Below are positions 34,249 to 58,320 of a stretch of DNA of 64,000 bases, piece after piece. Every line of letters begins with the position of its first letter. Positions within the stretch are counted from its first letter, which is position 1. A program made the position numbers and the translations under genes. A model generated the notes under the pieces. The model searched no databases, was not told where the DNA came from, and was given only the letters and a program-made list of their open reading frames with translations. This DNA is from Vicinamibacteria bacterium. GTDB lineage: Bacteria > Acidobacteriota > Vicinamibacteria > Vicinamibacterales > JAENWD01. The stretch lies in the NCBI GenBank assembly GCA_963800785.1, contig CAWDCH010000019.1:4790-68789 (forward strand). The letters run 5' to 3'.

Positions 34249-34335
34249 GCAGCGACGGGTAAACTCTGTCTGAGGCGCTGCTAAACATCCGAGGCTCATT
34301 GATGCCGCCGGTCGCGCACGCCTGCGGTGCCTAGC
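34249..34335 (+). repeat. IS3-like orfA-5' relic, copy A
   Basis: GCAGCGACGGGTAAACTCTGTCTGAGGCGCTGCTAAACATCCGAGGCTCATTGATGCCGCC... aligns with copies at 37021, 42906, 43.7 kb, 50.3 kb and 58.2 kb. Confidence 0.6.
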
Positions 34336-34844
34336 AGGTGATTGAAGAACTCCCTTCTTGAATTCTCCGGACAACCGGACAATCCTGCCTCTAAAGAGGC
34401 AGGGGTTTGTGTTCGGTCTGGTGGGTCACCGTGCCCTCGAGGGCATCGTAGTCGAGCGAATAGTCGAAGCCGTGCCATCCTAACTGAGCCGCGCGGTGAA
34501 CCTGCCGAGTGCGTTGCTGGCGACGACTGGCACCTCGCGCGTGCCCCTCAACTCGGCACCGAAGTGCGCCCACTCCTGTCCCCGCGGACGCTTACGCCCG
34601 ACAGACCCACGCCGGCAACGGCAGTTCTGATCAGGGCAAGCTTCTTCATCACACACCTCGCTGCAGGATGGTGCGGAAGTCATGAACGCGCTCGCGGTTG
34701 AAGTGCCCAGCGTTGAGAACCAGGCAACGCTGGGCGGGGTTTCACGTTGGCGTGACTCCGAGAATCCGACACTGCCTTCGGACGCACCGGACGCAGCCGG
34801 GCGCGCCGCGCACACAAAAAAGACTCCGCAGTTCGAGTGCCACA

Positions 34845-35534
34845 TCAGACGCCACTCTTCCTGCCGGTTTCGACCGTGAGAATGTACGTGACATCCAGGG
34901 AGAACACCCCGTCGCTGGTAGCCGCTGAGAAGTGAATGACGTGTTCCCCCGGTGGCAGCGGCGCTAGCAGCAGCCAAAAGCCATCAGACACGGCGGGCTC
35001 GTATATGCCTTCGGGCGCGCCGAAGATGTTACCGGCGGGCAGCGTGAGGCTGAATACGGGGGAGATTGCGCGATACCCCACCGGGTTCTCGACGGGTTGG
35101 CCATCAATGGTCACCGACATCGTGGCAATGGAGTCGATGAATGCTGCGTTTCTCGCGCGCATCTCCTCCACGGTACCTTCGTCCGCGCCCGCTAAGAACG
35201 TGTTCACGATCGGGAAGAAGAGCGCGGTTCCGGTCGGAACCGTGCAGGACCGTGTGGCCGTCCCACCGTTGGCTACTCCCGCCAGGTACCAGACCTTGGC
35301 ATCCTGGCCTTCAGCGCAATGTGCCCCCGAGTCATCTGTGAGCGGGTTGACGGCCGCCGGCGCGGCGAGCGCCCACTGCCACCACGCCGCCGTCCACTCC
35401 CCATATGACTGTCCGTACGGCTTCGTGTGCGGCGGCAGTATACGCGGGTTGGTATTCGCCGCGTGCGCCGATGACAACGGCAGAAGCAAGGCAAGGCCAA
35501 GACTGAAAACACGCGCGAGTATCACCTGTCTCAT
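34845..35534 (-). CDS. secreted hypothetical protein
   Basis: ATG 35534 follows AGGAAAC. Signal peptide MRQVILARVFSLGLALLLPLSSAHA. No known domain recognised. Confidence 0.6.
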   Translation of the reverse strand: MRQVILARVFSLGLALLLPLSSAHAANTNPRILPPHTKPYGQSYGEWTAAWWQWALAAPAAVNPLTDDSGAHCAEGQDAKVWYLAGVANGGTATRSCTVPTGTALFFPIVNTFLAGADEGTVEEMRARNAAFIDSIATMSVTIDGQPVENPVGYRAISPVFSLTLPAGNIFGAPEGIYEPAVSDGFWLLLAPLPPGEHVIHFSAATSDGVFSLDVTYILTVETGRKSGV

Positions 35535-35815
35535 AGGAGTTTCCTTTCTGAGACTGCGTTCAACGAGTCGAGCGAGAACCGGTAGCGCACACGGAGGGGG
35601 GCGCTCCCCTTGGGGGAGTGTTCCGCGGTGCCTTCCGGCTGGGTCCGGTGCCGGATAAACGGGCGGAGATGCTACCGGACCACACGTCATCCTTCAAGCA
35701 CGACTGTAAAAATCGTTGAGCGCCCTTCGGTGGGATCCAGGATATGGGCGACCCACCCAGACTCCCGCGATCACCAGCACCCACTTGGGAGACACGCCTT
35801 AGACGGCGCGCGTAG

Positions 35816-35844
35816 TTGACGTTATAGCGCTTTAGCGTTATTAT
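35816..35844 (+). promoter_or_regulatory. near-consensus promoter overlapping the recombinase start
   Basis: TTGACG (35816-35821), a 17-nt spacer, then TATTAT (35839-35844). The -10 hexamer overlaps ATG 35843, so in-frame GTG 35852 may be a leaderless start. Confidence 0.35.
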
Positions 35845-36487
35845 GGACGGCGTGCGAGCTGCTCTGTACGCGCGAGTGTCAACACTTGATCAACACCCTG
35901 AGAACCAACTTGATGAGCTGCGTCGGTACGCTGAGCACCGAGGTTGGTCGGCTGAACCGTTTGTGGACCACGGTATTTCTGGCACGAAGGAGTCACGACC
36001 CGAGTTGAACCGGCTGCTCGCGCGCGCCAGACGCCGCCAGATCGACGTCGTTGTGTGCTGGCGGTTGGATCGTCTCGGACGGAATCTCAAACACCTGATC
36101 ACGGTTCTCGACGAGTTTCAGAGCCTCGGGGTGGCCTTCGTCTCGCTCGGCGAGGGGATCGACGCGACGACGCCTGCCGGAAAGCTCCAGCTCCACATTC
36201 TGGGCGCTATCGCGGAATTCGAGCGTGGGCGCATAGTCGAGCGAGTCAAGGCAGGTTTAGCGCGCGCCCGTGCGAACGGGCGAAAACTGGGCCGACCAAG
36301 GGGAGCCGTTCCTTTCCATCGTCTTGTTCCGGTGGCTCATCTGTCGAACGCCGAAGCCGCTCGTTCGCTTGGGGTGTCACTGGCCACGCTGAAGCGATGG
36401 AGGAAGGCTCAGAAAACCCCCTCAGAAACGCCCTCACCTTCGCCCGAAATCACGAAGGATTCCGCGACGCCGGACCTCGCGGCGTGA
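35843..36487 (+). CDS. small serine recombinase (resolvase/invertase family)
   Basis: AALYARVSTLDQHPENQLDEL (catalytic Ser), VVVCWRLDRLGRNLKHLI, EFERGRIVERVKAGLARARANGRKLGRPRG, and a C-terminal HTH (AEAARSLGVSLATLKRW). Confidence 0.9.
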   Translation: MDGVRAALYARVSTLDQHPENQLDELRRYAEHRGWSAEPFVDHGISGTKESRPELNRLLARARRRQIDVVVCWRLDRLGRNLKHLITVLDEFQSLGVAFVSLGEGIDATTPAGKLQLHILGAIAEFERGRIVERVKAGLARARANGRKLGRPRGAVPFHRLVPVAHLSNAEAARSLGVSLATLKRWRKAQKTPSETPSPSPEITKDSATPDLAA

Positions 36488-36532
36488 GGCTCAGGAATCA
36501 GTCCTTTTTGGATCACACGACACACGTCGGGC

Positions 36533-36751
36533 ATGGGTAGATCAACCAAGGGAAAGAGGGTGACCGTAGGACCCAGAGGTGGTGCTACCACCGTGACGGA
36601 CGCGGGACTTGTCCGGAAGACCGTCTACTTCGATCCGGATGAATGGAAGGCGATCCGTCGAGAGGGGTTGGAGCAGGATTTGTCGTCCACTGAGATTGTG
36701 CGTCGTGCGGTCCGCAGGGCCCTTGGAATGCGAGAACCAGATCAAGGCTGA
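36533..36751 (+). CDS. ribbon-helix-helix (CopG-like) protein
   Basis: LVRKTVYFDPDEWKAIRREGLEQDLSSTEIVRRAVRRAL has a beta-strand followed by two helices, typical of RHH. Confidence 0.55.
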   Translation: MGRSTKGKRVTVGPRGGATTVTDAGLVRKTVYFDPDEWKAIRREGLEQDLSSTEIVRRAVRRALGMREPDQG

Positions 36752-37020
36752 CGGGCCAACTTGGGGAACGAGGAGCGTGATGGTAGAGGTCCGACCACTG
36801 GACTACACGAAGAGAAAATGCGCACGATCGCGGTGCTGCGCCTCGCACTTGACGGCAGGATCGTCATGCAAGGAAAGGTTCCGGAGAGTATTGAAGAAGA
36901 CTTGGCGCACCTGAGTCATCACGTGGAGTCAGGGCGGGAATTCCTGTGTCGCTTGCCGCGCGAGTCTTCAGCGTGTACTTGCGACCGAGCTGCGAGACCA
37001 GACGGTTTTCGGGCCAATCA

Positions 37021-37100
37021 CCAGGCGCTGCTAAACGATCGCGGAACATGGGTCAGGCCCACCGCAGGTCCCTGTGAAAATTCCCGGCAAAACTGACCTC
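37021..37100 (+). repeat. IS3-like orfA-5' relic, copy B
   Basis: CCAGGCGCTGCTAAACGATCGCGGAACATGGGTCAGGCCCACCGCAGGTCCCTGTGAAAATTCCCGGCAAAACTGA aligns with copy C. Confidence 0.55.
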
Positions 37101-37233
37101 GACGGCCTAACTAGTCCCCTGCTGAGGTTGCGAGTTGAGCCACCCGGCGCGCCATTGTTTTCAGCCTTCGACGATTGAGTCGCGAATCGAGTCCTTTGCC
37201 GCAGCCGCGCCGTTATAATCCGCCCGGCTGCCA

Positions 37234-39957
37234 ATGCCCGTGGGTCCCGGCGCTCGCCTGGATGCGTATGAGATCGTCGCCCCGCTCGGCACCGGAGGCA
37301 TGGGCGAAGTCTGGCTCGCGAAAGACCTGAGCCTACAGCGTAATGTCGCACTCAAGCTCTTACCGGCTGACCTGACCCGCGATTCCGCTCGCGTCGCCCG
37401 CTTCCGGCAGGAGGCTCGTGCCGCCTCCGCTCTCAATCATCCGAACGTCTGCACCATCCACGCGCTCGGGGAGACGCCTGACGGCCAGCAATTCATCGCC
37501 ATGGAGTGCGTGGAGGGCGAGACGCTGCGACAGAGGGTGGCTGGGCGGCACGTCACGGTGCGCGAGGCCCTCGACATTGCCCTCCAGGTCGCGACCGCGC
37601 TGAGCGCGGCGCACGCAGCGGGCATCGTCCACCGGGACATCAAGCCCGAAAACGTCATGCTCCGACCGGACGGGTTCGTGAAGGTGTTGGACTTCGGGCT
37701 AGCCAAGCTGGTGTCCGCCAGCGACGCACTGGAGCCGCAGTCCACGCGCACCGGGTTCAAGACGAACGCCGGGCATGTGGTCGGCACGATCGCGTACATG
37801 TCGCCGGAGCAGGCGCGCGCGCAGGAGATAGATGGCCGTACCGACATTTGGTCGCTGGGCGTCCTGCTCTTCGAGATGGTGGCGGGTCGCCACCCTTTCG
37901 CTGGGAAGAGTAGCAGCGATGTGCTCGCCGCGATTCTCGATCGCGAGCCCGCACCGCTGGCGCGGTTCGAGCCAGATGTGCCGACAGAACTCCAGCGCAT
38001 CGTCAGCAAGACGCTTCGTAAGGACCGAACGCAACGCTATCAGACGATGCAGGACCTGCTGCTGGATCTGCGCGCGCTCCGTGACGAACTACAAGGGCAA
38101 GTGCGCTCTGGCAGCTCGCCCGTCGTGCAGCGCGGGGAATCGGGGCCAGACAGCGACGCCCCGTTGACCTCGGTCCCGGCGTCCAGAGCCACACGTCGCC
38201 GCGCCTTGGCTATGGGCAGCCTCGCGATGGCCCTCGCGATGGTAGCGGCGGGTGCTGTCTGGTGGTGGGTGCATAGGGCAGCACTCCACGAGCACGGGAG
38301 CGGCACACGGTATCGAATCGGCCGGATGACTCGCTTGACCACCGAAGGGCATGCACACATGGCGGCGATTTCTGGCGACGGCCGCTACGTCGTACATGTC
38401 AAGACGGTGAACGGGACGCCGAGTCTGTGGGTACGACAGACAGCCACCGCGAGCGACGTACAGATTGTCCCCCCTTCGGGTGTCGAGTACATCGGAGTCG
38501 CCTTTTCGCGCGATGCGAATCACATCTACTACGTCACCAAAGAAAGTGGCGGTGGCTTATGGGGAACCCTTTTCAAAGTGCCCGTTCTGGGCGGGAGGCC
38601 CCAGCGCCTCATCCATGACATCGACAGCGGCATCGGGTTTGCGCCGGATGGATCACACTTCGTTTTCGCACGCCACGTACTGGCAAAGGATCACACTGAG
38701 TCCCACCTGATGCTCTCAGACATTGAAGGCAGAGCCATTCGTCCGCTCGCCTCATTTCGGGATGGGCGTTTATTCATGAGACATCCGGCGTCGTGGTCTC
38801 CGGATGGCAAACGGGTCTTAGCGGCGATCATCGTGGGTGGACACGCCGAGCTGCGATTGATCGACACTCACAGTGGAGCTGAAAAGGGGGTAGCGGGGTC
38901 ATGGGCCGTTATCTCCGCCGCGCAGTGGATGCCGGACGGCCAATCGATCCTACTCTCCGGAACGGAAGTGAATGGGCAGCCGTTGCAAATTTGGCAAGCG
39001 TTTCCAGAGTCAGGCAAGCGCACTCCGGTGACAAATGATCTGGCGACCTATGCGGGTCTGAGCCTGTCGAGCGATGGCACGATGTTGGTGACGGTGCAGT
39101 ATGAGATCACATCCCGCATCTCGCTGGTGACTGACGGTGCGGCTAGCGACCTGACGTTTGGGCGAACTGCCGATGGTGCCTTTGGCCTAACGTGGCTGGC
39201 TGACGGGCGCGTGCTTTTCGGGTCCACCCGGTCCGGTCCAGCAGAGATCTGGGCCGTCAATCGGGATGGGAGCGGTTTGGTCCCTCTCGCGCCGGGTGTC
39301 GAGAACGTAGGTTCAGTCGCCGCCAGCCATGACGGGCGTTATGTCTTCTGCGCGCGTACGGAGGCTCGGGCAAGCCGCATCTGGAGGGTGGACGTTGTGA
39401 GTGGAGATGCAAAGCCCATCACTTCCGGGCCGGAGGACTCTGGCCCCGTCATGAGCACGGATGGCCAGGAAATCTATTTCAATACACTCGCGAATGGGAT
39501 AACACGCACCTTCCGGGTTCCGGCAAACGGCGGTGTGCCCGCCGCTGTGGGGAACGGACAACCGTTCTGGCTGTCAGACATTCTGCCAGACGGGCGACTG
39601 CTCGGCGGCATGGCTGTTCAGCAGGATGATGGAACCATTGGAGGCACGTTCGCACTGCTGTCTCCGAACACCGGTGCTGTCGAACGGATTCGCGGAATTC
39701 CGCTGTCACCACATCCGTTTATCCCTGACGTGTCGCTGCGTGTCGCGGGCTTGCCGGACGGGACTGGAATCGCGTTCGTTGACACAAGGGACTCTGTACC
39801 CAATATATGGCGTAAGCCCATCAAAGGCGGTCCCGCACAGCGGGTGACGAACTTCACATCGGAGGCAATCTTCGACTTCGCGTGGTCGAAAGACGGGAAG
39901 CTCGCGGTTACGCGGGGCCGAGTTCAAGACGATCTGGTCCTGATCGCGAGGGAGTAG
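37234..39957 (+). CDS. Ser/Thr protein kinase with TM segment and C-terminal TolB/PD40-like beta-propeller
   Basis: Kinase motifs: LGTGGMGEVWLAKD, VALKLL, HRDIKPENVM, DFGLAK, GTIAYMSPEQ. TM helix LAMGSLAMALAMVAAGAVWWWV. The C-terminal region has repeated SPDG/APDG blades. Confidence 0.9.
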   Translation: MPVGPGARLDAYEIVAPLGTGGMGEVWLAKDLSLQRNVALKLLPADLTRDSARVARFRQEARAASALNHPNVCTIHALGETPDGQQFIAMECVEGETLRQRVAGRHVTVREALDIALQVATALSAAHAAGIVHRDIKPENVMLRPDGFVKVLDFGLAKLVSASDALEPQSTRTGFKTNAGHVVGTIAYMSPEQARAQEIDGRTDIWSLGVLLFEMVAGRHPFAGKSSSDVLAAILDREPAPLARFEPDVPTELQRIVSKTLRKDRTQRYQTMQDLLLDLRALRDELQGQVRSGSSPVVQRGESGPDSDAPLTSVPASRATRRRALAMGSLAMALAMVAAGAVWWWVHRAALHEHGSGTRYRIGRMTRLTTEGHAHMAAISGDGRYVVHVKTVNGTPSLWVRQTATASDVQIVPPSGVEYIGVAFSRDANHIYYVTKESGGGLWGTLFKVPVLGGRPQRLIHDIDSGIGFAPDGSHFVFARHVLAKDHTESHLMLSDIEGRAIRPLASFRDGRLFMRHPASWSPDGKRVLAAIIVGGHAELRLIDTHSGAEKGVAGSWAVISAAQWMPDGQSILLSGTEVNGQPLQIWQAFPESGKRTPVTNDLATYAGLSLSSDGTMLVTVQYEITSRISLVTDGAASDLTFGRTADGAFGLTWLADGRVLFGSTRSGPAEIWAVNRDGSGLVPLAPGVENVGSVAASHDGRYVFCARTEARASRIWRVDVVSGDAKPITSGPEDSGPVMSTDGQEIYFNTLANGITRTFRVPANGGVPAAVGNGQPFWLSDILPDGRLLGGMAVQQDDGTIGGTFALLSPNTGAVERIRGIPLSPHPFIPDVSLRVAGLPDGTGIAFVDTRDSVPNIWRKPIKGGPAQRVTNFTSEAIFDFAWSKDGKLAVTRGRVQDDLVLIARE

Positions 39958-40031
39958 TCGCAGGCTCCGCTACGATTTTTCCGAAGTGACCTGCAGCATT
40001 TGGATGCTCGACAACGTCGGATCGACAAGTG

Positions 40032-42677
40032 ATGGCACTCTCCACTGGCGTCAGACTCGGCCCCTACGAAATCGTGAGTCACGCCGGATCAGGCGGTATG
40101 GGCGAAGTCTACAAGGCCCGCGACACACGCCTGGACCGCACGGTCGCCATCAAGATACTCCCAAGCGACATCTCTGCTGACGCCGAGCGCCGTGCACGAT
40201 TTGAACGCGAAGCGAAGGCGATTGCCGCGTTGAGCCATCCGCGCATTTGCGCGCTCTACGACGTCGGTGTGCAGGATGGTGCCACGTACCTGGTCATGGA
40301 ACATCTGGCGGGTGAGACGCTGGCCGAGCGCCTACGGAAAGGACCATTGCCGCTCGCCAGTGCGCTGGACATCGCTGCCCAAGTCGCCGATGCGTTAGCC
40401 GCAGCGCACCGCGCGGGGATTGTGCATCGTGATCTGAAACCCGCCAATGTCATGCTGACAAAGAGTGGAGCCAAGCTGCTTGACTTCGGCTTGGCGAGGA
40501 CGATCCCGCTGGGCGTCACTGGCGACCAGACCCACATGGCAACCGAGGAACCGCTCACGAGCACGGGGACCATTCTCGGCACGTTGCACTACATGGCACC
40601 TGAACAGGTGGAGGGAGCGACGGCCGATGCACGGACTGATGTGTTTGCGTTCGGAGCGGTGCTCTACGAGATGCTGACAGGAAAGCGAGCGTTTGATGGG
40701 GGGAGTTCAGCATCTGTCATTGGCCAAATTCTGCACGCGCAGCCGTCTTGGATGCCCAGCGTGCGTTCACCAATCTCTGCGCTGATTCGGGCGACCGTTG
40801 AGCGATGTCTCGCGAAAGATCCAGACGCACGGTGGCAGAGCATCGCCGATGTCGCCGCGACGCTTCAGCTTGCGGCTGGACCCGATGATCGACCTACCCA
40901 CGACACTCGACCGATAGTCCGGCGCTCTGCATTTGTGGCAGCAGCCGCCGCCCTGATGCTTGCCGCCGCTGTGCTGTGGCCATGGGTCCGGCAGCGCACG
41001 ACTCCGCGAATACCGCCGATGGAACTCTCGGTTGTGCCGCCAGTCGGCACGACACTGCCCGATCTGCGCTCCAATCTCACCGTCAATTACATAGGATCTG
41101 AGGCCATCTCACCTGATGGTTCAAAGCTCGCCTTTGTCGCGTTTTCTGCGAAGGGCGACCCTGAGCTCTGGGTGCGCGATCTCTCGTCAGGCAACGCGAT
41201 CGTTGTGGCCGACACCTCGACCCTCCAGAAGCCGTTTTGGTCTCCTGACAGTCGCTCACTGGCGTACAGTGCGGTGGACGGCATGTATCGTCTCGATCTC
41301 GGCCAGGGGCGGCCTCGCCGCATCACCACTCCCGGCGGCCGAGGAACGTGGAGTGTCAATGGCACCATCATCTTCGACAAGTTTGGGATAGATACCCTGC
41401 TTCGAGTGGACGCGAGGGGTGGCGTAGCGACGCCGATCACGCGCCTGGAGCGCAATGGGCTCTCTCATGAGACGGCACACTTCCTCCCCGACGGCAACCA
41501 CTTCCTCTATACAGCGTTCATCCGGGGAGCCGGGCCGAGAATTGTCCTCGGATCGCTCGACGGTTCTCTAGCGCAAACGGTCGTGGAGCGCGCGGAGAAC
41601 CCCATTTATTCAGCGGGACACTTGCTGTTTCTGCGATCATCCACCCTGATGGCACAGCCCTTTGATCCTGTGCGCTTCACCACTAGCGGCGAGCCTCGAA
41701 CGATTGCATCGAACGTACTCAGCATGGGCGGCGGTCTCTCGACCTCGAATACGGGTGTCGTGGCGTATAGACCACGGCCGTCCGAACTGCATCAAGCATG
41801 GTGGTTCGATACCAGAGGGCAGCGCCTTGCACGTGTCGGTGTCGCACAGCCTTACCAGGATCAGTTTGTGTCACTCTCTCCGGACAACAAGCGCCTTGTC
41901 TACGGTGCCTATGCCTCGGACGTGAGTCGCGAGACTGATATCTGGATGCTGGACCTGGAGTACGACAGTGTGGCGCGGATAACGTCCGATCCCGGAGATG
42001 AGATCTTCCCCGCCTGGGCCCCTGACGGTCGGTCGATTGCTTACGTCTCCGATCGCGATCATGTGACCACCATCTGGCGCAGAGACTTAGAGTCGGGTAC
42101 CCAAGAGGTGCTCCGGAAGGTCAACGATTATAAAATCTACACTTACCAATGGTCGCCAGACGGCCGGTTCGTCATTTTTCACGAACCGGTCCCTAACTCG
42201 GGCAAATTCCTCCTGTCCTCAGTATCAGTCACGCAACCGGGACCACCCCGGCGTGTAACGACCAGTCAACTGAGAATGCAAGCGTATGCGACCGTGTCTC
42301 CAGACTCGCGCTGGACCGCTTATTTGGCCGAAGAGGGTATTGAAGGCTTAGCGTTATATCTTGAACCCTTCCCGCCAACAGGTCAGATCCAGCGCATCGC
42401 GCCTAAAGCAACCTTCGTCCAGTGGGGACGCAATGCCGCCGAGCTGTTTTTTAGCGCCGACCGCAAGATGTATCGCGTGCGGCCCGTGGCGTCGGCAGCG
42501 GCCGAAGCGCCGCAATTTCTCTTTGAAGTGGATTTCGAGCTCAACACGTTCAACGTAGCCAAGGACGCTGACCGCTTCTTGCTCTTGGTGCCGCTAGAGG
42601 GTGTGCAATCGGGCAGGATCAACCTGATCACCGACTGGCCGGAGCGCCTCAGCGGCGCTCAGCAGGCACACCCCTGA
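40032..42677 (+). CDS. Ser/Thr protein kinase with TM segment and C-terminal TolB/PD40-like beta-propeller (paralogue)
   Basis: AGSGGMGEVYKARD, VAIKIL, HRDLKPANVM, DFGLAR, GTLHYMAPEQ, a TM helix, then repeated SPDG/LPDGN/APDGR blades. Confidence 0.9.
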   Translation: MALSTGVRLGPYEIVSHAGSGGMGEVYKARDTRLDRTVAIKILPSDISADAERRARFEREAKAIAALSHPRICALYDVGVQDGATYLVMEHLAGETLAERLRKGPLPLASALDIAAQVADALAAAHRAGIVHRDLKPANVMLTKSGAKLLDFGLARTIPLGVTGDQTHMATEEPLTSTGTILGTLHYMAPEQVEGATADARTDVFAFGAVLYEMLTGKRAFDGGSSASVIGQILHAQPSWMPSVRSPISALIRATVERCLAKDPDARWQSIADVAATLQLAAGPDDRPTHDTRPIVRRSAFVAAAAALMLAAAVLWPWVRQRTTPRIPPMELSVVPPVGTTLPDLRSNLTVNYIGSEAISPDGSKLAFVAFSAKGDPELWVRDLSSGNAIVVADTSTLQKPFWSPDSRSLAYSAVDGMYRLDLGQGRPRRITTPGGRGTWSVNGTIIFDKFGIDTLLRVDARGGVATPITRLERNGLSHETAHFLPDGNHFLYTAFIRGAGPRIVLGSLDGSLAQTVVERAENPIYSAGHLLFLRSSTLMAQPFDPVRFTTSGEPRTIASNVLSMGGGLSTSNTGVVAYRPRPSELHQAWWFDTRGQRLARVGVAQPYQDQFVSLSPDNKRLVYGAYASDVSRETDIWMLDLEYDSVARITSDPGDEIFPAWAPDGRSIAYVSDRDHVTTIWRRDLESGTQEVLRKVNDYKIYTYQWSPDGRFVIFHEPVPNSGKFLLSSVSVTQPGPPRRVTTSQLRMQAYATVSPDSRWTAYLAEEGIEGLALYLEPFPPTGQIQRIAPKATFVQWGRNAAELFFSADRKMYRVRPVASAAAEAPQFLFEVDFELNTFNVAKDADRFLLLVPLEGVQSGRINLITDWPERLSGAQQAHP

Positions 42678-42905
42678 ACGGCCTACCCGCGCGGCGATCT
42701 GGTGCCGCCCGAGCCGACGATACGCAACCCTCAGCCAATCGCGTCATTCCGCGCAACGATCTGCGCCAGCTAGCTCGCATTCAGAGATCGCACTAGCGTG
42801 CCAGGTTGCGGAGCATCCGGTCGGGCCTTCGTCGGTAAACCGTAGGACATCAGGACGCAGTTGCACCTGTGCCCCGCCGTGCACGCCTAGAGCGAACACA
42901 CCGTG

Positions 42906-42988
42906 CCAGGCGCTGCTAAACAAGCGGCGCTCATCGATGTGGCCGCCCGCAAGTGTCTGCGAAAATTTTCTGGCTCAAAGATTATTCC
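42906..42988 (+). repeat. IS3-like orfA-5' relic, copy C
   Basis: CCAGGCGCTGCTAAACAAGCGGCGCTCATCGATGTGGCCGCCCGCAAGTGTCTGCGAAAATTTTCTGGCTCAAAGATT. Confidence 0.6.
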
Positions 42989-43145
42989 TGACGGCACCGG
43001 CCATCAGCTTAGCCAGACGTCGTACCCAGCCGCCGTGAACGTCTCACTCGTCGCTGCGATAACGATCCGCATCACGCCGGCAGCGACAGACTGCTGACTC
43101 TGGCTCTGGAGCGTTTGCGGGGGACCGCCCGCCTGCGCTCGCTGC

Positions 43146-43514
43146 TTACTTCTTTATCTGACTCTGCAGGTTCTTCTGGACGACGGTCACCTGGGAAGCG
43201 TGCATCTTCCCCTCCATCTCGTGGTACGTCACCTTGACCAGGTCGTCGGTGGCGACACCATCCGTGATGGTGAGCGGCTCGTTTTTCGCCTTCTTCTCAC
43301 TTGCCATCGTCCCGATGCCTTTGCCCGTCAGCTTGGTGGCCGAGTCCACGGCAAAGGTCATGGTGTCTGCACCGTGCGAGATCGTGAGGGAATCGTTTGT
43401 GACTGCTGTAACTTTCCCCTGCACCGTCGTGGTCTTCGGGTTCTGCGCCGCTAGCGCGACGCCAACCACCCCGCTCAGGAGCAACGTGACGCCAAGTCGG
43501 ACCATCCTCTTCAT
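43146..43514 (-). CDS. small secreted beta-rich protein
   Basis: Signal peptide MKRMVRLGVTLLLSGVVGVALA, then VQGKVTAVTNDSLTISHGADTMTFAV...LVKVTYHEMEGKMHASQVTVV. Confidence 0.65.
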   Translation of the reverse strand: MKRMVRLGVTLLLSGVVGVALAAQNPKTTTVQGKVTAVTNDSLTISHGADTMTFAVDSATKLTGKGIGTMASEKKAKNEPLTITDGVATDDLVKVTYHEMEGKMHASQVTVVQKNLQSQIKK

Positions 43515-43631
43515 GGCAGCCTCCTATTGATGACGCCTTGATGACGCCGCACCGTTGGCCGGAAAGCGCTCCGAGAGTAGGCCTGTGCGGGGGCGCGGTC
43601 AAGCCCGCCTTCCCCCGACTCGACTGTGGCC

Positions 43632-43830
43632 TGACGTTCTGGCCGAAAACGACGGCATCCAAAAACTAGAGAAAACTTGCGGCTTCGGACGGCACAGGAG
43701 CGGACCATGAAGAAGTCGAAGTTCACCGACGAGCAGATCGCCGACGCCCTCCGCCAGGTCGAAAACAGAAGCGTTGCTGACGCGTTGCTCGATTCGAGGA
43801 TTTGCCATTGGCGGTTTACGGGCGGGCTGG
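43632..43830 (+). mobile_element. IS3-like left end (IRL-like) plus degenerate orfA 5' part, copy D
   Basis: TGACGTTCTGGCCGAAAACGACGGCATCCAAAAACTAGAG aligns with the copy E terminus. ATG 43707 gives MKKSKFTDEQIADALRQVEN..., the usual IS3 OrfA N-terminus, then degenerates. Confidence 0.6.
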
Positions 43831-44157
43831 ACGAGCAAGGACGAGCTGTGTGCGCCGTTACTTCACCAAACGCGGAACGCCCGCTCCGCCCTGGTCAATG
43901 CCAACACGGCAAGGTCGTGCGCATTAACGCTCGGATTGCCTGTAACGGGAATGGCCGCTTGGTGCTTCCATGCGAAAGGATGTGCAATGACGTCTTTCTC
44001 GCGGCGAGCAGGCCCCTAAAACCTGACCGGACGTATCTGATCGAAGACGGGCGAGTCCCGTCGAGACACGCGCACGCACTTCCGCGACCTCCGCGCACGA
44101 CACTTCAGCAGTATTCTGCAATCCCCAACGCGACGGCTCCTCGGCTCCGAGTGAGCC

Positions 44158-44337
44158 ATGTCAAACAATCATGCCGATGGGATGGGCGTTCCGATGGAAC
44201 GTGTCTGTCCGAACTGTCAGCACGCGGAAGCAAAAACGACGCTTCGCACCACGTGGGCCCTGCTGTATGTGCAGTGCCTTCGCTGTGGGCATGTGTGGGC
44301 CGTCCCGCAACCGATCCCACCGTTGACGGGGAGCTAA
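44158..44337 (+). CDS. small Zn-ribbon protein (59 aa), family member 1
   Basis: MSNNHADGMGVPMERVCPNCQHAEAKTTLRTTWALLYVQCLRCGHVWAVPQPIPPLTGS. Below the 60-aa ORF-track cutoff, so read directly from the DNA. Confidence 0.45.
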   Translation: MSNNHADGMGVPMERVCPNCQHAEAKTTLRTTWALLYVQCLRCGHVWAVPQPIPPLTGS

Positions 44338-44444
44338 CGTGCTCGATGAAGAGACGGCTTGTCGGCGGTGCGGTGGGAACGTCAGCGAATCGCACGAGAC
44401 GGTGCCGTATATCGGCCCAGGCCCTTGCGTCGTGGAGTTGCGGA

Positions 44445-44633
44445 ATGTCGCTCGTGCGGCGATGTGTCACATGTGGGCAGATGGGTATCGAGGTGCCAGA
44501 TGCCTCGGCCCTGGACGTGTTGGTGCAATGCCTGCGGGCTGGACGAACCAACGCCATGCTCCAACTTGTGTATAAGCGGGGACGGTGGCGCGTCTCCGGC
44601 ATGAAACGCGGTCATCGGCGAGGTTCGCAGTGA
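44445..44633 (+). CDS. small Zn-ribbon-like protein, family member 2 (second CxxC degenerate)
   Basis: MSLVRRCVTCGQMGIEVPDASALDVLVQCLRAGRTNAMLQLVYKRGRWRV... Confidence 0.35.
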   Translation: MSLVRRCVTCGQMGIEVPDASALDVLVQCLRAGRTNAMLQLVYKRGRWRVSGMKRGHRRGSQ

Positions 44634-48533: not shown

Positions 48534-48992
48534 ATTGGGACAGCAAGGGCCGCAAATAGCTGGCGGCGGTCGATGAGAGAGTCGAACCGATCGGCCATGG
48601 TGTCCTCCTGGCTCGTGAGCCCATGTTGAGGACACCCAGAGCTACTGACCGGGGTCAGCGGGACGCTTCGTTGTCCGCCACCCGACGGACCACATCTCGC
48701 TTGGCGCGATGGCACCTTGCGCGTCCGCGCAGGTTGCCGAGCCCATCGCCTCGTTGGGATGGACTGCTCTGGATGTCGCGGTCAGTGTACCACGCGGTTT
48801 AGGACTGACTGGCCTGCCGCCAGCCCCGTTTCCGCAGGTACGCCTGTTGGTGGTCTTCGTTGTCAAACTCCGTGTACTCCCGCCGGGAGACCGGCAGGCT
48901 CGCTTCTTGAACCCTGTTTACCTATGGGTCACAAAACACATGATTGCGGGACGAAAGCGGCGCAGGCCAAAACGAGCGGATTCCCGAGGAAA

Positions 48993-49190
48993 TCAGGAGG
49001 CGAGTTCAGCAGGTTTCTGGGACACCCTGGCCCGATGCACGACAGATCGCGAGACGCCGAGCGTAGCGGCCGCTTCACGCACCGACATGTGGGCCGTCCG
49101 CATGATGTCGGGCAGCGCGAGATTAGCCGCTGGACGGCCCAGGCTTGCAAGAGGTGCGAACTCTCGCGAGCCCAGCCCGTACCGCTCCGG
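48993..49190 (-). pseudogene. serine-recombinase C-terminal HTH remnant
   Basis: ...LGRPAANLALPDIMRTAHMSVREAAATLGVSRSVVHRAR resembles the GRP...HTH tail of resolvases. No catalytic domain lies upstream. Confidence 0.35.
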
Positions 49191-49234
49191 GATTCGCGCC
49201 ACGGTCGTCGAACGTCTCACGTCCGGTCCGTGTC

Positions 49235-50194
49235 ATGATGCATCCGCCCTCCAACGGAGGTATCGTGATTGACACCTCTGACTCACTTGCCCGCCTCGTC
49301 TCTGTCGTGCTGCCCCCCGCCGCTAGCGAGGAGGACGTCAAGATCCGAATCGTAATGCCCTTCCTCAGAGCATTCGGGTATACCGACGACGAATTTGGCT
49401 ACGAGGGTCGAACCGGAAAAGGCTATGTAGATATTACCACCTCTACTCTTCCAGTCGGCATCGTGGTCGAAACGAAGGGGCCCAAAAAACGGGTATCCGA
49501 TCATATCGACCAACTCGAGTCCTACGTCTTCCAGAAGCATACCCGCGATCGAGCAACCGTCGCTATCCTCACGAATGGCGACGTGTTCTATGTGTTCGGC
49601 GTTGCCGAGGCTTGGATTCGCGGTGACCTACACCTGCATCGACTGGAGTGCTTTCGACGTTCGGAACTCGCGGACGCGGCACTACTGACTCGGTTAGGTG
49701 GCCTACTGAGCAAAGAGCGAAACCGATCCGGTCTTCTCTTTGATGCGATCACTGCCCGCCTGAAGGAGGTTCGCGAAATGCGTGAGCGAGTAAGGGCCAT
49801 CGACGCGGAGCTGGAGACACTCATCGCCCAGCGCCTGCGCATCGACGTCCAGATTCGTGACTTGCAGTCCGAGCGGGCATCGCTGGTTGGCGCTGCGGTG
49901 GCTCCGACCGCGCCCTCTCTACCTACCTTCACAGATGAGCTGCCCGGCGGGACATCCATTGACAAGCTGACAAGGATCGCCTCACCTCACATTATTCGGC
50001 TACTTCATGAAAAGGGTGCCACCTCCAGAGAACGCGCGGTTCAACGCACTTGGCTCGACCAGACTCTCATTGGCAAGGTTCAAGGCATCGACACCCAACA
50101 GGAGGTCAGCTGGGGCATCATCGAGCTTAAGAAGGTAGGGAGAATCGATTACGACAAGAAGAGCGGTCGCGTCCGTTCAGTCTGGCTCAAATAA
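49235..50194 (+). CDS. HSDR_N-like PD-(D/E)xK nuclease domain + coiled coil + C-terminal winged-helix-like region
   Basis: EEDVKIRIVMPFLRAFGYTDDEFGYEGRTGKGYVDITT...GIVVETKGPKKRVSDHIDQLESYV...AILTNGDVFYVF follows the type I HsdR N-terminal nuclease pattern (E..vk....lL..LGy...E...g..D..l...i.vE.K...Ql..Y...a.ltnG). A helical segment follows: RLKEVREMRERVRAIDAELETLIAQRLRIDVQIRDLQ. Confidence 0.6.
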   Translation: MMHPPSNGGIVIDTSDSLARLVSVVLPPAASEEDVKIRIVMPFLRAFGYTDDEFGYEGRTGKGYVDITTSTLPVGIVVETKGPKKRVSDHIDQLESYVFQKHTRDRATVAILTNGDVFYVFGVAEAWIRGDLHLHRLECFRRSELADAALLTRLGGLLSKERNRSGLLFDAITARLKEVREMRERVRAIDAELETLIAQRLRIDVQIRDLQSERASLVGAAVAPTAPSLPTFTDELPGGTSIDKLTRIASPHIIRLLHEKGATSRERAVQRTWLDQTLIGKVQGIDTQQEVSWGIIELKKVGRIDYDKKSGRVRSVWLK

Positions 50195-50201
50195 ATGGGA
50201 G

Positions 50202-50412
50202 TGTGACGTTGCCCCACAAAACGGGGGCAGTCCACACTAGAGAATCCTGACGCGTGCGGGGTCCTCGATGAGAGGATGAGGACCAATGACGAAATCGAAG
50301 TTCACCGAGGAGCAGATCGGCTAACCTGTCTGAGGCGCTGCTAAACGTGCTGCGCTCATCGATACTGTCGCTCGCAAGTATCTGCGAAAAGTTTCTGCTC
50401 CAAGACATTCCT
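50202..50412 (+). mobile_element. IS3-like left end (palindromic IRL) plus orfA 5' relic, copy E
   Basis: TGTGACGTTGCCCCACAAAACGGGGGCAGTCCACACTAGAGAATCC is similar to the IRL region of the 979-bp element. ATG 50286 gives MTKSKFTEEQIG*, followed by the shared ...CTGTCTGAGGCGCTGCTAAACGTGCTGCGCTCATCGATACTGTC...CTGCGAAAAGTTTCTGCTCCAAGA. Confidence 0.65.
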
Positions 50413-51000
50413 CGTTGGCGGCCTACCAGTGAGGGCGGTGTCCCAGCTCCCCAGTCGCTGAGCGCAGACGATAGACTCAGCCGAGTCGGTCAAACCGTTG
50501 TGCTCCGAATTCCGGCTAAGCTGACTGCGCTCCAGAGATAATAACGAACCGCCGGACGTGTGCGGCAGCGCTCGGCCGGGGAGGTCCGACGGCACGACAC
50601 CCTGCAGGTACCCCCGCATCAACTGCTGCCAGTGGTCGGCATCACGCAGGTAATCGTCGAAGTACGTGTCGCCGATGAAGCCGAGGTACAGCAGGCGGAC
50701 GGGCACGCCGACGCTGGCCACCTTGTACGCGGAGGCGAGGCGGTTCGCGAGCTGGTAGTGGCTGTCGGCCGTCAGCGCCGTCGGACCCGCGACCTGTGAG
50801 AACCAGTCCTGCGCCTCGGCGATTGCGGCCCGGATGCGCCCGTCGTTCGCCCATGCCTGAGGACTGTCGGTCTCCGCGCTCAGCGCCCGCTTGCCCTTCC
50901 AGTCCAACCCGGACTCGTGGGCCTTCGCCTCGACCAGCAGCAGTCCGCTAAGTTCTGGGTGTGCCCGTCGGCGTCCGCACCTGCTAGAGTAGCGCCGCAC
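50356..51000 (-). CDS. hypothetical protein with possible PD-(D/E)xK element; N- and C-termini uncertain
   Basis: HPELSGLLLVEAKAHESGLDWKGK (ExK) and SHYQLANRLASAYKVASVGVPVRLLYLGFIGD. The start is only a GTG, 12 nt from the divergent gene. A possible upstream ...GADADGH piece lies in another frame. The 3' end runs into relic E. Confidence 0.4.
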   Translation of the reverse strand: MRRYSSRCGRRRAHPELSGLLLVEAKAHESGLDWKGKRALSAETDSPQAWANDGRIRAAIAEAQDWFSQVAGPTALTADSHYQLANRLASAYKVASVGVPVRLLYLGFIGDTYFDDYLRDADHWQQLMRGYLQGVVPSDLPGRALPHTSGGSLLSLERSQLSRNSEHNGLTDSAESIVCAQRLGSWDTALTGRPPTRNVLEQKLFADTCERQYR

Positions 51001-51011
51001 GGGGTGCCGAA

Positions 51012-51854
51012 ATGCTTGGACTGTTCGAACTCCTCTCGCTGCGACACGTGTCTTGCGACCCCAAACGGACGAAGCTGGTCCGGCACAAGGACCAGCGGTT
51101 CGACCTGCAGTTGTTCAAGCGCCGAGGATGGCTGGAAATCTATCAAGCATTTCAGAGCCGACCCATCTTCCATGGCTGCGACACGATTCTCACGTTCATG
51201 GGCGAGGAAGAGAAGCGCAGCCGACTACTCGGGATGTACAAGGTAGCCGGACACCAGCCCGCCGATGGCGTCTCACTCCCCGCAGGGTGTCCCTCAGCAG
51301 TGAAGACGGGTGGCTACTTCTACACCCTCGAACGCCTCGCTGGGCTGGAAGACCTTGAAGGTCGCGTCGTGATCGACTGGGGCCGGAACCCAATCGCATG
51401 GCACCAGTGGCTGACAGATCGCGAGCTGATTGAGATCAGCCCGCCGGGCCAATCGCGCGCCCCGTTCCGCGACTATCTGGAGTTCACCCTGACGCACGAG
51501 GAGTTGTGCGATCTGGCGACTCACGCCGCCGCCAACCGTGAATGGCAGGCCCGGCTAGAGGCGGTAGGGGGCGTGTACTTGATTCTGGCCACGACCAACG
51601 GTCAGCAGTATGTGGGGTCGGCGACCGGGGCAGGCGGTGTTTGGGATCGCTGGATGGGATATGCCCGCACGGGTCACGGCGGGAACGCTGCGCTCCGCGC
51701 CCTCCTCGCGAATGACAAGAACTACCCGGCGGCGTTCCAGTACTCGCTCCTGCAGGTATTTTCGAAGACCTTGACCCGGGCCGAGGCTCTCGATCACGAG
51801 CGCCTGTACAAGACAAAGCTGGGGAGCCGGGCACAGGGGCTCCAACTGAACTGA
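51012..51854 (+). CDS. GIY-YIG nuclease family protein with uncharacterised N-terminal domain
   Basis: C-terminal GVYLILATTNGQQYVGSATGAGGVWDRWMGYARTGHGGN...FQYSLLQVFSKTLTRAEALDHERLYKTKLGSR (GIY...YIG...R...E). N-terminal KLVRHKDQRFDLQLFKRRGWLEIYQAFQ. Confidence 0.75.
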   Translation: MLGLFELLSLRHVSCDPKRTKLVRHKDQRFDLQLFKRRGWLEIYQAFQSRPIFHGCDTILTFMGEEEKRSRLLGMYKVAGHQPADGVSLPAGCPSAVKTGGYFYTLERLAGLEDLEGRVVIDWGRNPIAWHQWLTDRELIEISPPGQSRAPFRDYLEFTLTHEELCDLATHAAANREWQARLEAVGGVYLILATTNGQQYVGSATGAGGVWDRWMGYARTGHGGNAALRALLANDKNYPAAFQYSLLQVFSKTLTRAEALDHERLYKTKLGSRAQGLQLN

Positions 51855-54724: not shown

Positions 54725-56649
54725 TCAGCCGTGGGCGGCGAGGTGCCCGCACGTCTCGTCCTCGAAGTTGATCTCCTTGTGCAGACACATGCCGGTCAGT
54801 GAAGCGGTTGTAGGCCAGATCAAGCGGCAGAGGTCGAAAAGCAATCTTTGTCTGCCATCAAGCTCATCCGGGCCGAATTTCTCCAGTGCCTGAAACGTGA
54901 GCTTGTTTGCGGAAATAAATGCGGCGAGATCCAGCTTGCTCTTGTAGGTATCCTCTAAGAGCGTCTGGTTCCACAGCAGTGTGTTCGCATAGGACTTCTG
55001 CTTCTGACTGAACGGTTCGTTCCCGCTGGAGATATTGTCCTTCCCCTTCAGCAGGAGCACGCCCCCAAGCCGGTTCCGCTCCTGCTCGAAGCGTTCTTCG
55101 TCGTTGTCAAACAGGCCAAGATTTTCGGCGTTCCGCGAGAGGATGTGCTCGATGTGAAAGCCGTTCACGCTGCCCCTGAGCGTTACCAGGTCCTTGAGCG
55201 ACTGCGTTGGCTGCTTCATTCCCTTGCTGAGCAGTGACTCCACGCGCGCAAACAAGTACCGTACGAAACGAGTATTCAGTCGGTCAATCGACATGGGCTT
55301 GAAGAGCGCCCAGTTCCATGCATCGAGGTCAGGCGTGCCTCGCCGCTCTATAAGCTCCGCTATCAAGTGCCTGTTGAAGATCGCGGGGATCTCCGCGGCC
55401 GGTCGGTCACGAATATCCTTGCTGATCTCGAACAGCCGCGAAGTGTACTCGTTGGAGTCATACGCGCCTTGAAGCTGCAACAGGGAGAACATTCGATCAA
55501 CGCCCGACGCGACCGCTTGCACCTTGGCGGACTCCTCGGGATCGTCCACTTTGCAAGCGGCGAGCACCAGCATGAACTGGTTGTCCTGCTCGTTGAGACT
55601 GTTGCAGTAAACGGCCATGGACTCGACTGACTCTTTTTTGGTCGCCGCAGACAGTCGAGCGTAAAGGCCAGTGAAATAGCGAAACGTGCCGTTCAGAAAC
55701 GCTTTCGCCCCGACGGCGTTGTGGTCAAGCTTCAGGTGAGCGTCGAGATCCACCTTGAACATCTCGCGGTGATAAGCGCCATCAAATCTCTGGCCATCCT
55801 TGCGACTGTCAGCGAACTTCGCCTTCAGCCAGTACCTGAAAAAGCTGTCGATTTCGTCTTCGCGGAAGTCATTCACCGCTTGTACGCGTTCCTCCCACAG
55901 CGCGTTGAACTTTCCGCTTTCCAGCTCGATCTTGTCGATTTGTCCGAGCAGCTTCCCCTTGAGGATCTCATAGGGTTTGAGCCGAACGCCGCGGTCGTTG
56001 ATGACCTCAAATACCATCGGTACGTGGGTCGTCTCGACCGACAGGTTGATCAGCACTAGTCGAAAGAGGAAGTAGTGAACAAACGTCTCAACCTTGTGCT
56101 TCGTCGTCAAATTCGCATCGAGATAGCCGCTGATAGCCTGATAGTTGCCGACCATGTTCACAGCGGTCACGCCGGTCGTCGTGTCGATGCTGCCTAAAGC
56201 CTGACCTTCCATCAATGCTTTGAGTACGTGTAGGTAACGCACGTGGTTCATCCAGAACACTTGCTCGGTTCCGGAGTACCCGAGATCTTTCGGTCGATCC
56301 AGTTGGCAGTCTTCGACTCATGTGTCCGAGCCATAGCCAGCAACTTGAGAAGGATCAACGTCAGCGTGGTCAGCCGCTGCTGCCCGTCCACGACGAACAC
56401 GCGTCCACCCACAGGGTTCGTGACGTACGTGTTCAGGTAGTACCACGGGTACCGGGCGTTGATGTTCTCGCGGTTCGGCTCAAGCGAGGCATGTGTCGCG
56501 TAGGCTTCGTCGAACTGGTAGAAGACATCCTCCAGTAGACGTTTCACCGGTTCAGCGGTCCATTTGTAGTCCCGTTGATAGAAGTCAATCTCGTAGACCG
56601 TTGTGGAGAAGGTCTGATCGAGGTTCTGCTTGTCGGGCTGGATGTCCAT
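54725..56649 (-). pseudogene. GmrSD-family type IV restriction enzyme (DUF262 + DUF1524), one frameshift
   Basis: N-terminal ORF 56248..56649: YEIDFYQRDYKWTAEPVKRLLEDV, VVDGQQRLTTLTLIL (DUF262). ORF 54725..56260: VFEVINDRGVRLKPYEILK and FHIEHILSRNAENLG...LGGVLLLKGKDNISSGN (DUF1524 His-Me finger). The join is near 56270-56280 (ISG / YSGTEQVFWMNH). Confidence 0.8.
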
Positions 56650-57395
56650 GTCAGACTCACTGAAAGTGGGTGACGTCCGTAGCGGGGCGCGCCCGGGCCG
56701 TCATTTCGAACCCGGATCTCGATGACGGCGATCGAGGGCACTGTCCAACGCCGCTACCCGGCGCTTGCTCATGATCGATCCGCTCTGAGCAGGCTCGCGA
56801 CCCCTCCCGGCTGAGCGGCCTGTTCGAGTGACTCTGGCGGCTCTCGCATTGCAACATCCTTTCACTTCGGATGCAGACGTGCCTGGACCGACTTCCTCGA
56901 GTAGCAGTCCGCGCGGTGCAGAGTGTTTCTGGGAGGTAAAGCGGATGAATCGGCAGCGTTCCCCGATTGCCGAATCACAATATCAGTGGCCGAACCAAGC
57001 TGTCGTTGCGCGATCGCAATCACCGCTAGCGCGTTTAGGTCACTTGCCGCCGTTTTGATCTGCGACGTGGGCGGACCGACCCTGGCCTCTGGATTGGGGG
57101 CTAAACTCAGCAGCAGTGCTTCCGATAGGCGTCGTGAAGTCCTGTGAAAATCGAGTTGTTGACAGATGGCTCATTGCTCGCGCGCAACGACAGCCACAAT
57201 CACGCTTCGGTAGAATTCCGTCGTCGTAAGCGAGTCGGCTGGCGAGTTGCTGGCTACCGCCACGATCGAGCACCACCCCCAGTCAATTGCAAGGCTGAGA
57301 GACGCAACGCCTGGTGGCCTCGCCGCCTGCCAGGGTGTGTGCGGATTGGAGAGTTGTTGTTGAGTCGATCCGTCGTTCACACGGAAGCGACGTCA

Positions 57396-57935
57396 GTGCC
57401 AGATGGCGCAGCGATCATCGACCACCTCGCGCATGGGCCGCTCCATCGGTTTGCCGACTGGCCGAACGCCAACGTGCCGAGGGTGGCTATCGGGCTCTAC
57501 TCAGTGTGGAGAGACGAAGAGTTCATCTACATCGGCATGGCGGGCAGAGCGAGTGAGGCCGTGCTCCACAGCGCACACGAGGCGGGAAGAGCCTGTGGCC
57601 TTCGCGACCGATTGCGAAGCCATGCCACGGGGCGACGGAGCGGCGACCAGTTCTGCATCTACGTCGCAGATCGTCTGGTCCTGCCCGAACTCAACTCGGA
57701 CCAGATCAGTGCCGTTGCGTCAGGCCGTCTCTCCCTCGACGCGCTCGTGTGCGACTACATCCAGCAACATCTCGGCTACCGCTTCTATGCCTTTCCGGCG
57801 CTTTCCGTGACGGAGCAACAGGCGATGCGGCGGCTGGAGCGCCACATCCAGCAGGGCGAAAGCCCCATCGGACGACCGCTCCTGAACCCGCTTCCACTGC
57901 CAGGATCGCCACCGCCGCCCGTGGGATTGCTGTGA
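57396..57935 (+). CDS. GIY-YIG-like nuclease domain protein
   Basis: VAIGLYSVWRDEEFIYIGMAGRAS...GLRDRLRSHATGRRSGDQFCIYV... The ORF opens at GTG 57144. I favour in-frame GTG 57396 because the domain starts just after it. Confidence 0.5.
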   Translation: MPDGAAIIDHLAHGPLHRFADWPNANVPRVAIGLYSVWRDEEFIYIGMAGRASEAVLHSAHEAGRACGLRDRLRSHATGRRSGDQFCIYVADRLVLPELNSDQISAVASGRLSLDALVCDYIQQHLGYRFYAFPALSVTEQQAMRRLERHIQQGESPIGRPLLNPLPLPGSPPPPVGLL

Positions 57936-58200
57936 CCGCAGTCGCTCCGGATACGACTCGAAGACTGAGCTTGCGAGGCATGATAGCCACTCCCAATGCT
58001 GAATACTGACCGCCAGCGCCTGGTCGAACAGGCCCTGCGCGTGCTTGCCCTGCTGGCCCTTGCGGTCATCCCCGCGCTCCTTCTTGAAGATAGTCCGCAT
58101 CGCGGGTCATTCAGGCCGTGGCTCGCGGTGTGAACTGGTTCGTATGGTTGGCGTTGCTTCGCTCGCCCAGGGCAAGACGAGTAAACAAGTCGGCGGGCCG

Positions 58201-58320
58201 CTAGAGTCGGCAGTACGATGCAGCGACGGCCGACCTGTCAGAGGTGCTGCTAAACGTGATGCGCTCATCGATACTGTCAATCGTAAGTGCCTGCGAAAAT
58301 TTTTCTGCTCCAAGATTTTC
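58201..58320 (+). repeat. IS3-like orfA-5' relic, copy F
   Basis: CTAGAGTCGGCAGTACGATGCAGCGACGGCCGACCTGTCAGAGGTGCTGCTAAACGTGATGCGCTCATCGATACTGTCAATCGTAAGTGCCTGCGAAAATTTTTCTGCTCCAAGATTTTC. Confidence 0.65.

Follow-up and report, generated by a model that had tools for sequence, protein, structure and literature searches.

Direct repeats that partition genomic islands are already well known from duplicated attachment (att) sites, from the attC sites of integrons, and from IS26 arrays. Attachment-site repeats lie between tandemly accreted integrative elements, as in the accretion of integrative and conjugative elements (ICEs) and cis-mobilizable elements (CIMEs) or in tRNA-linked arrays such as tycheposons. 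Here, we describe a repeat family from a 64,000-nt stretch of a Vicinamibacteria bacterium genome (Acidobacteriota; assembly GCA_963800785.1, contig CAWDCH010000019.1, positions 4,790 to 68,789, forward strand; the whole stretch is hereafter called the window), in which five copies of a core of ~110 to 125 nt, or of ~190 nt at most when weaker flanks are counted, lie in one orientation between blocks of defense-type genes. On the tested features, the family fits none of these described systems. Our leading explanation, held with somewhat less than even confidence, is that it represents a lineage-restricted, non-coding junction repeat that was copied as modules accreted head-to-tail and that was later eroded by recombination.

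A profile built from the repeat copies was used to search the whole window with nhmmer and detected exactly five core copies, all on the + strand and with E-values between 1e-23 and 1e-33: A (34241 to 34363, 87.9 bits), B (36991 to 37114, 79.0 bits), C (42879 to 43002, 104 bits), E (50303 to 50429, 110.7 bits, the nearest to the family consensus), and F (58212 to 58338, 104 bits). No further core copy was found in the 64 kb, where the remaining profile scores were no better than E = 0.4. The original prediction had counted six copies with a shared core; this stands for these five but not for D, in which the core is absent and whose similarity to E stops at 50319/43740. The uniform orientation was borne out for all five core copies, and the homology ends at a similar point only roughly, as the right ends spread over 50412-50420 (E), 42989-43022 (C), and 58327-58351 (F), while the left ends vary by copy. 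A pattern of 22 positions invariant across the five copies had no match in the shuffled window. Pairwise identity is nevertheless low, amounting to 84-86% between E and F, 83% between C and E, and ~62% for A and B to the others, and judged by this divergence the copies are old. Conservation is patchy and falls on a 13-mer (GGCGCTGCTAAAC), CAT.G, CG.A.G, and CTG.GAAAAT, the last coinciding with an A/T-rich near-palindrome, GAAAA(N)TTTTC. Separately, the 26 nt directly after the att repeat of a tRNA-Leu island in the left part of the window (26911-26936, GGCTCTAACCGATCGTGGCACATGG) resemble the center of copy B; this match scores 2.4 bits with the profile and may be due to chance.

The copies occupy different settings. 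Copy A has an alpA-like gene on one side and the 3' end of a minus-strand secreted-protein open reading frame (ORF) on the other. Upstream of copy B lie genes for a recombinase and a ribbon-helix-helix (RHH)-like protein, with the first of two kinase genes starting 120 nt downstream, while copy C follows the second kinase gene inside a 345-nt segment (42788-43132). Copy F, which is without coverage in the soil runs used for comparison, is followed after ~100 nt by a small secreted-protein ORF and type I restriction-modification (R-M) genes.

We compared this arrangement with the described systems. As in accreted att arrays, the repeats are direct and in one orientation, the modules between them vary among strains and mostly lack a recombinase of their own, and half or hybrid copies occur in relatives. 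Unlike in such arrays, the repeat lies outside a tRNA or conserved gene, the copies are only 60-86% alike, and there is neither a fixed crossover nor an integrase linked to the repeat. An identical core in all copies appears to be lacking as well: the 13-mer is exact in four of the five window copies, whereas F deviates from it at one position, and it is absent from copy A of a related contig, L003. The four exact copies are A, B, C, and E. Integron attC arrays are similar in having imperfect sites of comparable size (~60-140 nt) in the same orientation between cargo units, with defense genes as cargo. They differ in that our repeat has no attC-type hairpin (z about 0), its blocks measure 3-8 kb and carry several genes on both strands, and the neighboring recombinase is of the serine type. 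No IntI was seen beside the array, and the only tyrosine recombinase found (20802-22019) belongs to the tRNA-Leu island, 12 kb off. In IS26 translocatable-unit arrays, directly oriented sequences derived from an insertion sequence (IS) likewise alternate with cargo; those arrays, however, consist of complete identical IS copies with an active transposase, whereas here the units are diverged non-coding stretches of ~120 nt with no ORF. Tests for structure and signals within the repeat were negative. DNA folds of the copies on both strands gave z-scores of -0.6 to 1.1, indicating no significant single-strand structure; the consensus fold (-4.5 kcal/mol, 10 pairs) showed no real covariation, no Rfam family matched the repeat, and no sigma-70 promoters were found at C, E, and F. 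Neither an invertase-type motif (WAAAC-N3-GTTTW) near the recombinase or any copy nor inverted resolvase or invertase half-sites were detected, the only symmetry being a short imperfect palindrome around the 13-mer.

Searches with three patterns, each looser than the one before, retrieved no true copy from representative genomes of 185,579 species, from Joint Genome Institute (JGI) metagenomes, or from viral contigs. The strict 22-position pattern had 0 matches in genomes and JGI metagenomes and a two-motif pattern 0 in genomes, while looser patterns returned 37 chance matches only (JGI metagenomes, 19; viral contigs, 18), none of which passed the profile or showed likeness outside the pattern itself. 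True copies were reached only by tracing neighboring proteins into relatives. L003, a contig from the European Nucleotide Archive with a 99%-identical recombinase, carries three copies in the same order and orientation as in the window; L025, a 3.2-kb JGI contig, has one; and the soil runs X3 and X41 contain fragments. By these searches the repeat family is very rare and lineage-restricted, and a literature search found nothing directly comparable to the repeat array.

The comparison with L003 revealed how copies can differ within an otherwise conserved block. Positions 7770-10883 of L003 correspond to 33658-36754 of the window and are mostly 98-100% identical. The shared block contains a small AlpA-like gene of the excisionase or regulator type (33821-34060, + strand; Pfam Phage_AlpA match on the L003 ortholog), copy A, the secreted-protein ORF, a small serine recombinase between A and B with a resolvase N-terminal domain and a helix-turn-helix (HTH) (35843-36487, + strand; PF00239, 4e-50), and a 72-aa ORF (36533-36751, + strand) taken from the ORF list and labeled RHH-like in the original prediction, which has no Pfam or NCBIfam match. 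The closest solved relative of the recombinase is the Gin invertase (PDB 4m6f, 3e-28), and in all three loci (window, L003, and L025) a core repeat lies downstream of the RHH-like ORF. The alpA block of L003, like that of soil run X3, is directly preceded by a left-half core copy (...GCTGCTAAACGTGCCG(G/C)GCTCATCGAC, followed across the junction by ACC...). At this junction, TGCTAAACGTGCCGCGCTCATCGAC is joined to 33658, where the window and run X12 have unrelated sequence instead, and both junctions around the alpA block of L003 and X3 bear an imperfect ~20-nt duplication, AAC.T.CC.GGCTCAT.GA. Furthermore, within copy A, a 42-nt patch comprising the left half with the 13-mer (34243-34284) is only ~50% identical between the window and L003, although its flanks are 98-100% identical. 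The patch of the window is a normal left half, identical to the L003 half copy at 35 of 42 positions; that of L003 is not repeat-like, and no donor for it was found among the sequences compared. Homology between the two loci stops at the right end of copy B, beyond which each carries unrelated genes. We also observed many single-base indels between L003 8600-10000 and window 34480-35870, where the secreted-protein ORF is split into three called genes in L003; these reflect either assembly errors in one record or pseudogenization.

L025 differs from the window by whole blocks. Read in the orientation of the window, it starts with the RHH-like region (72% identical) and a core copy that begins exactly at CGCTGCTAAAC, followed by 479 nt of unique sequence. 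It continues with 43132-43741 and 43826-43940, which hold a DUF5666 gene and relic D, and then with 187 unique nucleotides, 47248-47557 joined to 48534-48824 (an intervening IS being absent), 105 unique nucleotides, an inverted 50404-50465, and finally 50543-50948. The blocks specific to the window are thus 36925-43131 (B, both kinases, and C), 43941-47247, the IS, and 48825-50403, the last of which contains a nuclease-like gene, the IS3 end, and core E and stops exactly at the right end of E. Each window-specific block with a core copy bears that copy at or near a block end. Blocks are not only gained or lost: in X41, the contig consists of 43132-43931, 306 nt, and 42788-43132, so that the C-bearing segment lies downstream of relic D rather than upstream. 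Relic D itself stays beside the DUF5666 gene in L025, L046, L047, and X41, with L046 and L047 differing beyond 43132, and breakpoints at this relic fall at 43741/43826 and about 43940. The proposal that the repeats separate cargo blocks therefore holds up, as each block between copies can be present, missing, or shifted in relatives independently of the others.

The 62-nt stretch 50404-50465 deserves separate mention. It follows core E in the window, whereas it stands inverted and core-free in L025 (416-477), X40, and X41, all of which join the inverted 50404... straight to 50543; there it adjoins a terminator-like hairpin (50569-50548, minus strand). As read from these contigs, a local inversion or rejoining has occurred at 50404-50465. 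A simple invertible switch at 50403/50542 was considered and rejected, since the junctions are by eye not mutual inverted repeats and the relatives diverge after the 62 nt.

Breakpoints are concentrated at the repeats and IS3 relics. Whole-locus comparisons with two relatives, with junctions delimited by our own judgment, yielded 20 breakpoint ends. Core copies and IS3 relics make up 5.5% of the span compared but received 8 of these ends (p = 6e-6), and at the level of events, 6 of 12 touched a core copy or relic (p = 9e-4).

In the explanation we favor, all copies would descend from one sequence that was already non-coding, and not from five separately decayed IS elements. Modules would have been added head-to-tail beside an existing copy, each addition bringing or regenerating a copy; this would explain both the single orientation and the position between blocks. 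Later, the copies would have acted as recombination-prone junctions in which deletions, a flipped flank, and patch replacements start or end. The outcome would be mosaic, split, and truncated copies, with E joined to the truncated left end of an IS3 element and D left as a separate core-less relic. Such a history would also account for why the 13-mer is constrained, why breakpoints are enriched, and why mosaic copies occur. Two suggestions of the original prediction fit in here. Its doubt about independent decay is supported: the copies share the same non-coding core and are not separately decayed IS insertions. Serial recombination between copies agrees with what relatives show, namely copies that are split, truncated, or replaced in a patch. 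We infer that the repeat is copied by accretion itself, and likewise the enzyme, for which the Gin-like serine recombinase with the AlpA-like protein is a candidate; RecA-independent short-homology joining is an alternative to a recombinase.

Several points weigh against this explanation. The enrichment comes from only two relatives and from junctions placed by judgment. The breakpoints lie at differing positions of the repeat and share no common crossover, as the junction falls before the 13-mer in L025, after it in the patch of copy A, ~25 nt later in the half copy of L003 and X3, and at the right end in B and E; one fixed site-specific crossover is consequently not supported. Others lie away from repeats altogether (33658, 36508, 43132, 47248, and 48824). 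No excision circle, two-copy deletion junction, or clean hybrid pair of empty and occupied sites was seen, the contigs from the soil runs being short and of low depth. L004 and L005, whose recombinases are 76-79% identical, have no related repeats nearby. The orientation bias alone is weak, five of five copies on one strand giving a two-sided p of 0.06. Last, E and F are identical over at most ~19 nt in a row, and the divergence of the copies is too high for efficient RecA recombination.

The rival that survives best, although we consider it rather unlikely, is that the copies are inert debris, that is, old IS3-derived or other sequence multiplied by a few local duplications (for example, by unequal crossing-over) that took no part in block movement and occupies intergenic seams only because indels are tolerated there. 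The high divergence of the copies (60-86% identity) would suit this, as would junctions that are scattered along the repeat and often lie elsewhere, the lack of a detectable structure, promoter, dyad symmetry, or RNA family, and the weak orientation statistic. The contiguity of E with an IS3 end points the same way, together with a frame-0 peptide (...IDTVARK...) that bears a weak likeness to the HTH region of OrfA (p about 0.03). Debris would not, however, be expected to keep the 13-mer in copies that are otherwise only ~60% identical, to attract breakpoints, to undergo a 42-nt patch swap confined to one copy between nearly identical flanks, or to lie at or near the end of every window-specific block that bears a core copy.

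The IS3 connection itself requires a more restricted formulation than the six relics of an IS left end originally proposed. An IS3-type left end followed by the first 12 orfA codons (ATG at 50286) occupies 50202-50319 on the + strand, as defined by alignments to D and to intact orfAs, and is fused to copy E. Relic D (43632-43940, + strand), delimited by the alignment of E with D, consists of an IS3-type left end (TGACGTT...), the orfA start MKKSKFTDEQIA, and decayed orfA with no core repeat; its residues 1-23 give a weak match to HTH_Tnp_1. E 50218-50319 and D 43646-43740 share 78 of 107 aligned positions, and the similarity ends where the core of E begins. Moreover, the 34 nt from the ATG of E match the starts of intact IS3-family orfAs, both in many soil contigs and in L002, a complete IS3-family element on the Indioceanicola plasmid NZ_CP030127 (OrfA MRKSKFTEEQIAFALRQAE...). 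The presence of a terminus resembling the left inverted repeat (IRL) and of an OrfA start in D and E was thereby confirmed, the two being alike in the TGACGTT... terminus and the start M(T/K)KSKFT(E/D)EQI that they share with the family. Beyond this point the likeness stops. Intact orfA sequences part from the window exactly at 50319-50323 and then run on as normal orfA, and matches in a plasmid BLAST with copy E as query were limited to the orfA start. In soil run X42, the upstream gene stops at 50193 without an IS3 end. To judge from these alignments, a true IS3 left end is present only in D and in the 115 nt upstream of the core of E, so that the proposed six relics were an overstatement.

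That all six are nevertheless relics of one IS3-family left end, with the core as a decayed orfA HTH region that spread in a one-ended manner, like a miniature inverted-repeat transposable element (MITE), after truncation, seems improbable to us. In its favor, the IRL, orfA start, and core are contiguous in E, the same IS end recurs in D, and RWRPTSEGG follows the core of E roughly where OrfA would have its RWKxKYGG motif. The core, however, has no significant DNA similarity to intact orfA beyond nt 34 (z about 0-2) and, translated in two reading frames, no HTH_Tnp_1 match among Pfam profiles, while the frame-0 peptide (GAAKRAALIDTVARKYLRK) resembles OrfA at p about 0.03 for E and above 0.1 for the other copies. 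When the 220 nt preceding A, B, C, F, and the copies in relatives were locally aligned to the left ends of E and D, nothing IRL- or orfA-like emerged (z below 1.5), apart from ~23 nt that adjoin the core of the L003 half copy on its upstream side; an IS3 end is thus absent from four of the five core copies. In contrast to IS3-family elements, there is no target duplication, no orfB adjoins any core copy, and no match resembling a right inverted repeat (IRR) rises above background downstream of any copy, a by-eye resemblance at 43100-43132 having failed scoring; this also speaks against the suggested MITE-like unit. D lacks the core, and the post-core stretch 50404-50465 stands alone, inverted, in relatives. 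The original prediction had further reported an in-frame TAA within GCTGCTAAAC shared by five copies, which proved to be a frame error, since in the frame of the ATG of E these bases read GCT AAA. The stop that ends MTKSKFTEEQIG is instead the TAA at 50322-50324 within GGCTAAC of copy E, and it is missing from F. An IS3 origin of the core is, on these comparisons, possible but unproven, and E could just as well have arisen when an IS3 end was fused to a core copy through a shared GCAG.(A/G).CGG.

More doubtful still is a dedicated cassette system, in which the Gin-like serine recombinase, aided by the AlpA-like protein as its directionality factor, would move multi-gene modules at the repeats much as an integron does. 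The repeats would then be double-stranded sites of ~120 bp for defense blocks of 1-8 kb, and the whole a serine-recombinase counterpart of the integron, so far undescribed; we give this little credence. Its main basis is the alpA block of L003 and X3, which has a left-half copy on one side and a right-half copy on the other, each junction bearing the imperfect ~20-nt duplication. Furthermore, both the window and L003 have the genes for the recombinase, the AlpA-like protein, and the RHH-like protein within the A-B part of the array, and the uniform orientation and conserved 13-mer would also be expected. As in res, gix, and hix sites, the repeat is of res-like length (~120 nt), adjoins a Gin-like recombinase, and has a 13-mer whose A-tract end (TAAAC) recalls invertase half-sites. 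Unlike those sites, it shows no dyad-symmetric half-sites inverted around a central dinucleotide and is not conserved beside homologous recombinases, related enzymes having no such repeats nearby. In addition, events share no crossover position, copy B lacks GGCTCAT and copy A of L003 lacks the 13-mer, and an active resolvase would delete between direct res-like sites. In the same neighborhood, a 17-nt inverted repeat (34784-34800 and 35635-35651, 16 of 17 complementary) brackets the secreted-protein ORF beside the recombinase and could mark an invertible segment.

Finally, a cis-regulatory protein-binding element at defense modules, such as an operator for the RHH-like or another HTH protein, is the least probable explanation, for although the motifs are patchily conserved, including GAAAA(N)TTTTC, and three loci have an RHH-like ORF immediately before a copy, the contexts vary between convergent genes (A, C, and E) and positions upstream of + strand genes (B and F), no promoter-like sites were found, and the clustering of breakpoints would be left unexplained.

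The cargo of the array is of the defense type, comprising type I R-M, GmrSD, UzuA, and two kinases. The latter, Ser/Thr enzymes that are encoded in tandem and carry PD40 propellers (37234-39957 and 40029-42677), match PD-T4-6 models, matches that may reflect the kinase domain only. UzuA of the Uzume defense system (51012-51854) is matched over its full length (1.6e-81). GmrSD is split on the minus strand into a C-terminal ORF of 511 aa (GmrSD_C, 54725-56260) and an overlapping N-terminal ORF of 133 aa (GmrSD_N, 56248-56649), which suggests a frameshifted gene.

The window has several further features. Two 100% identical copies of a 979-bp IS lie at 4276-5254 and 47555-48533, the latter being the only intact IS in the region and unrelated to the core copies. 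The element encodes a single 297-aa rve/HTH_21 ORF and no orfA, has 23-nt inverted repeats (TGGAGTTCCCAGG(A/C)TTT(T/A)GTGGA), and is flanked by target duplications of 3-4 bp (GTG and ATTG); L025 has the empty site, in which 47557 is joined to 48534. A match to a SAM-I/IV riboswitch at 48657-48781 (minus strand; 48.2 bits against an Rfam gathering threshold of 41.1) is now parted from its former downstream by the second IS copy, both sides being contiguous in L025. In the left part of the window, a perfect 46-nt direct repeat corresponding to the 3' part of tRNA-Leu(CAG) (6359-6404 and 26866-26911) flanks a separate island of 20.5 kb; unusually, the partial tRNA copy is located 5' of the intact tRNA. 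The island contains a DUF927/Toprim primase, a PT-TG toxin, McrBC, and the tyrosine integrase at 20802-22019. A 51/102-nt tandem repeat array (13124-14137) lies within the 606-aa PT-TG (pre-toxin) ORF (12322-14142), and a 193-nt direct repeat of 76% identity (15777-15969 and 20529-20721) is also found inside this island.

If the repeats are only debris, they are the ordinary footprint of an old mobile-element hotspot, and the main value of the analysis is a corrected annotation of five core copies and two IS3 left-end relics. If it is true that the recombinase acts on them, they would define a new cassette-exchange system. If they are seams for the addition and swapping of defense modules, they would be usable as a simple sequence marker of module boundaries and would provide a handle on how defense islands are assembled in poorly studied soil bacteria.

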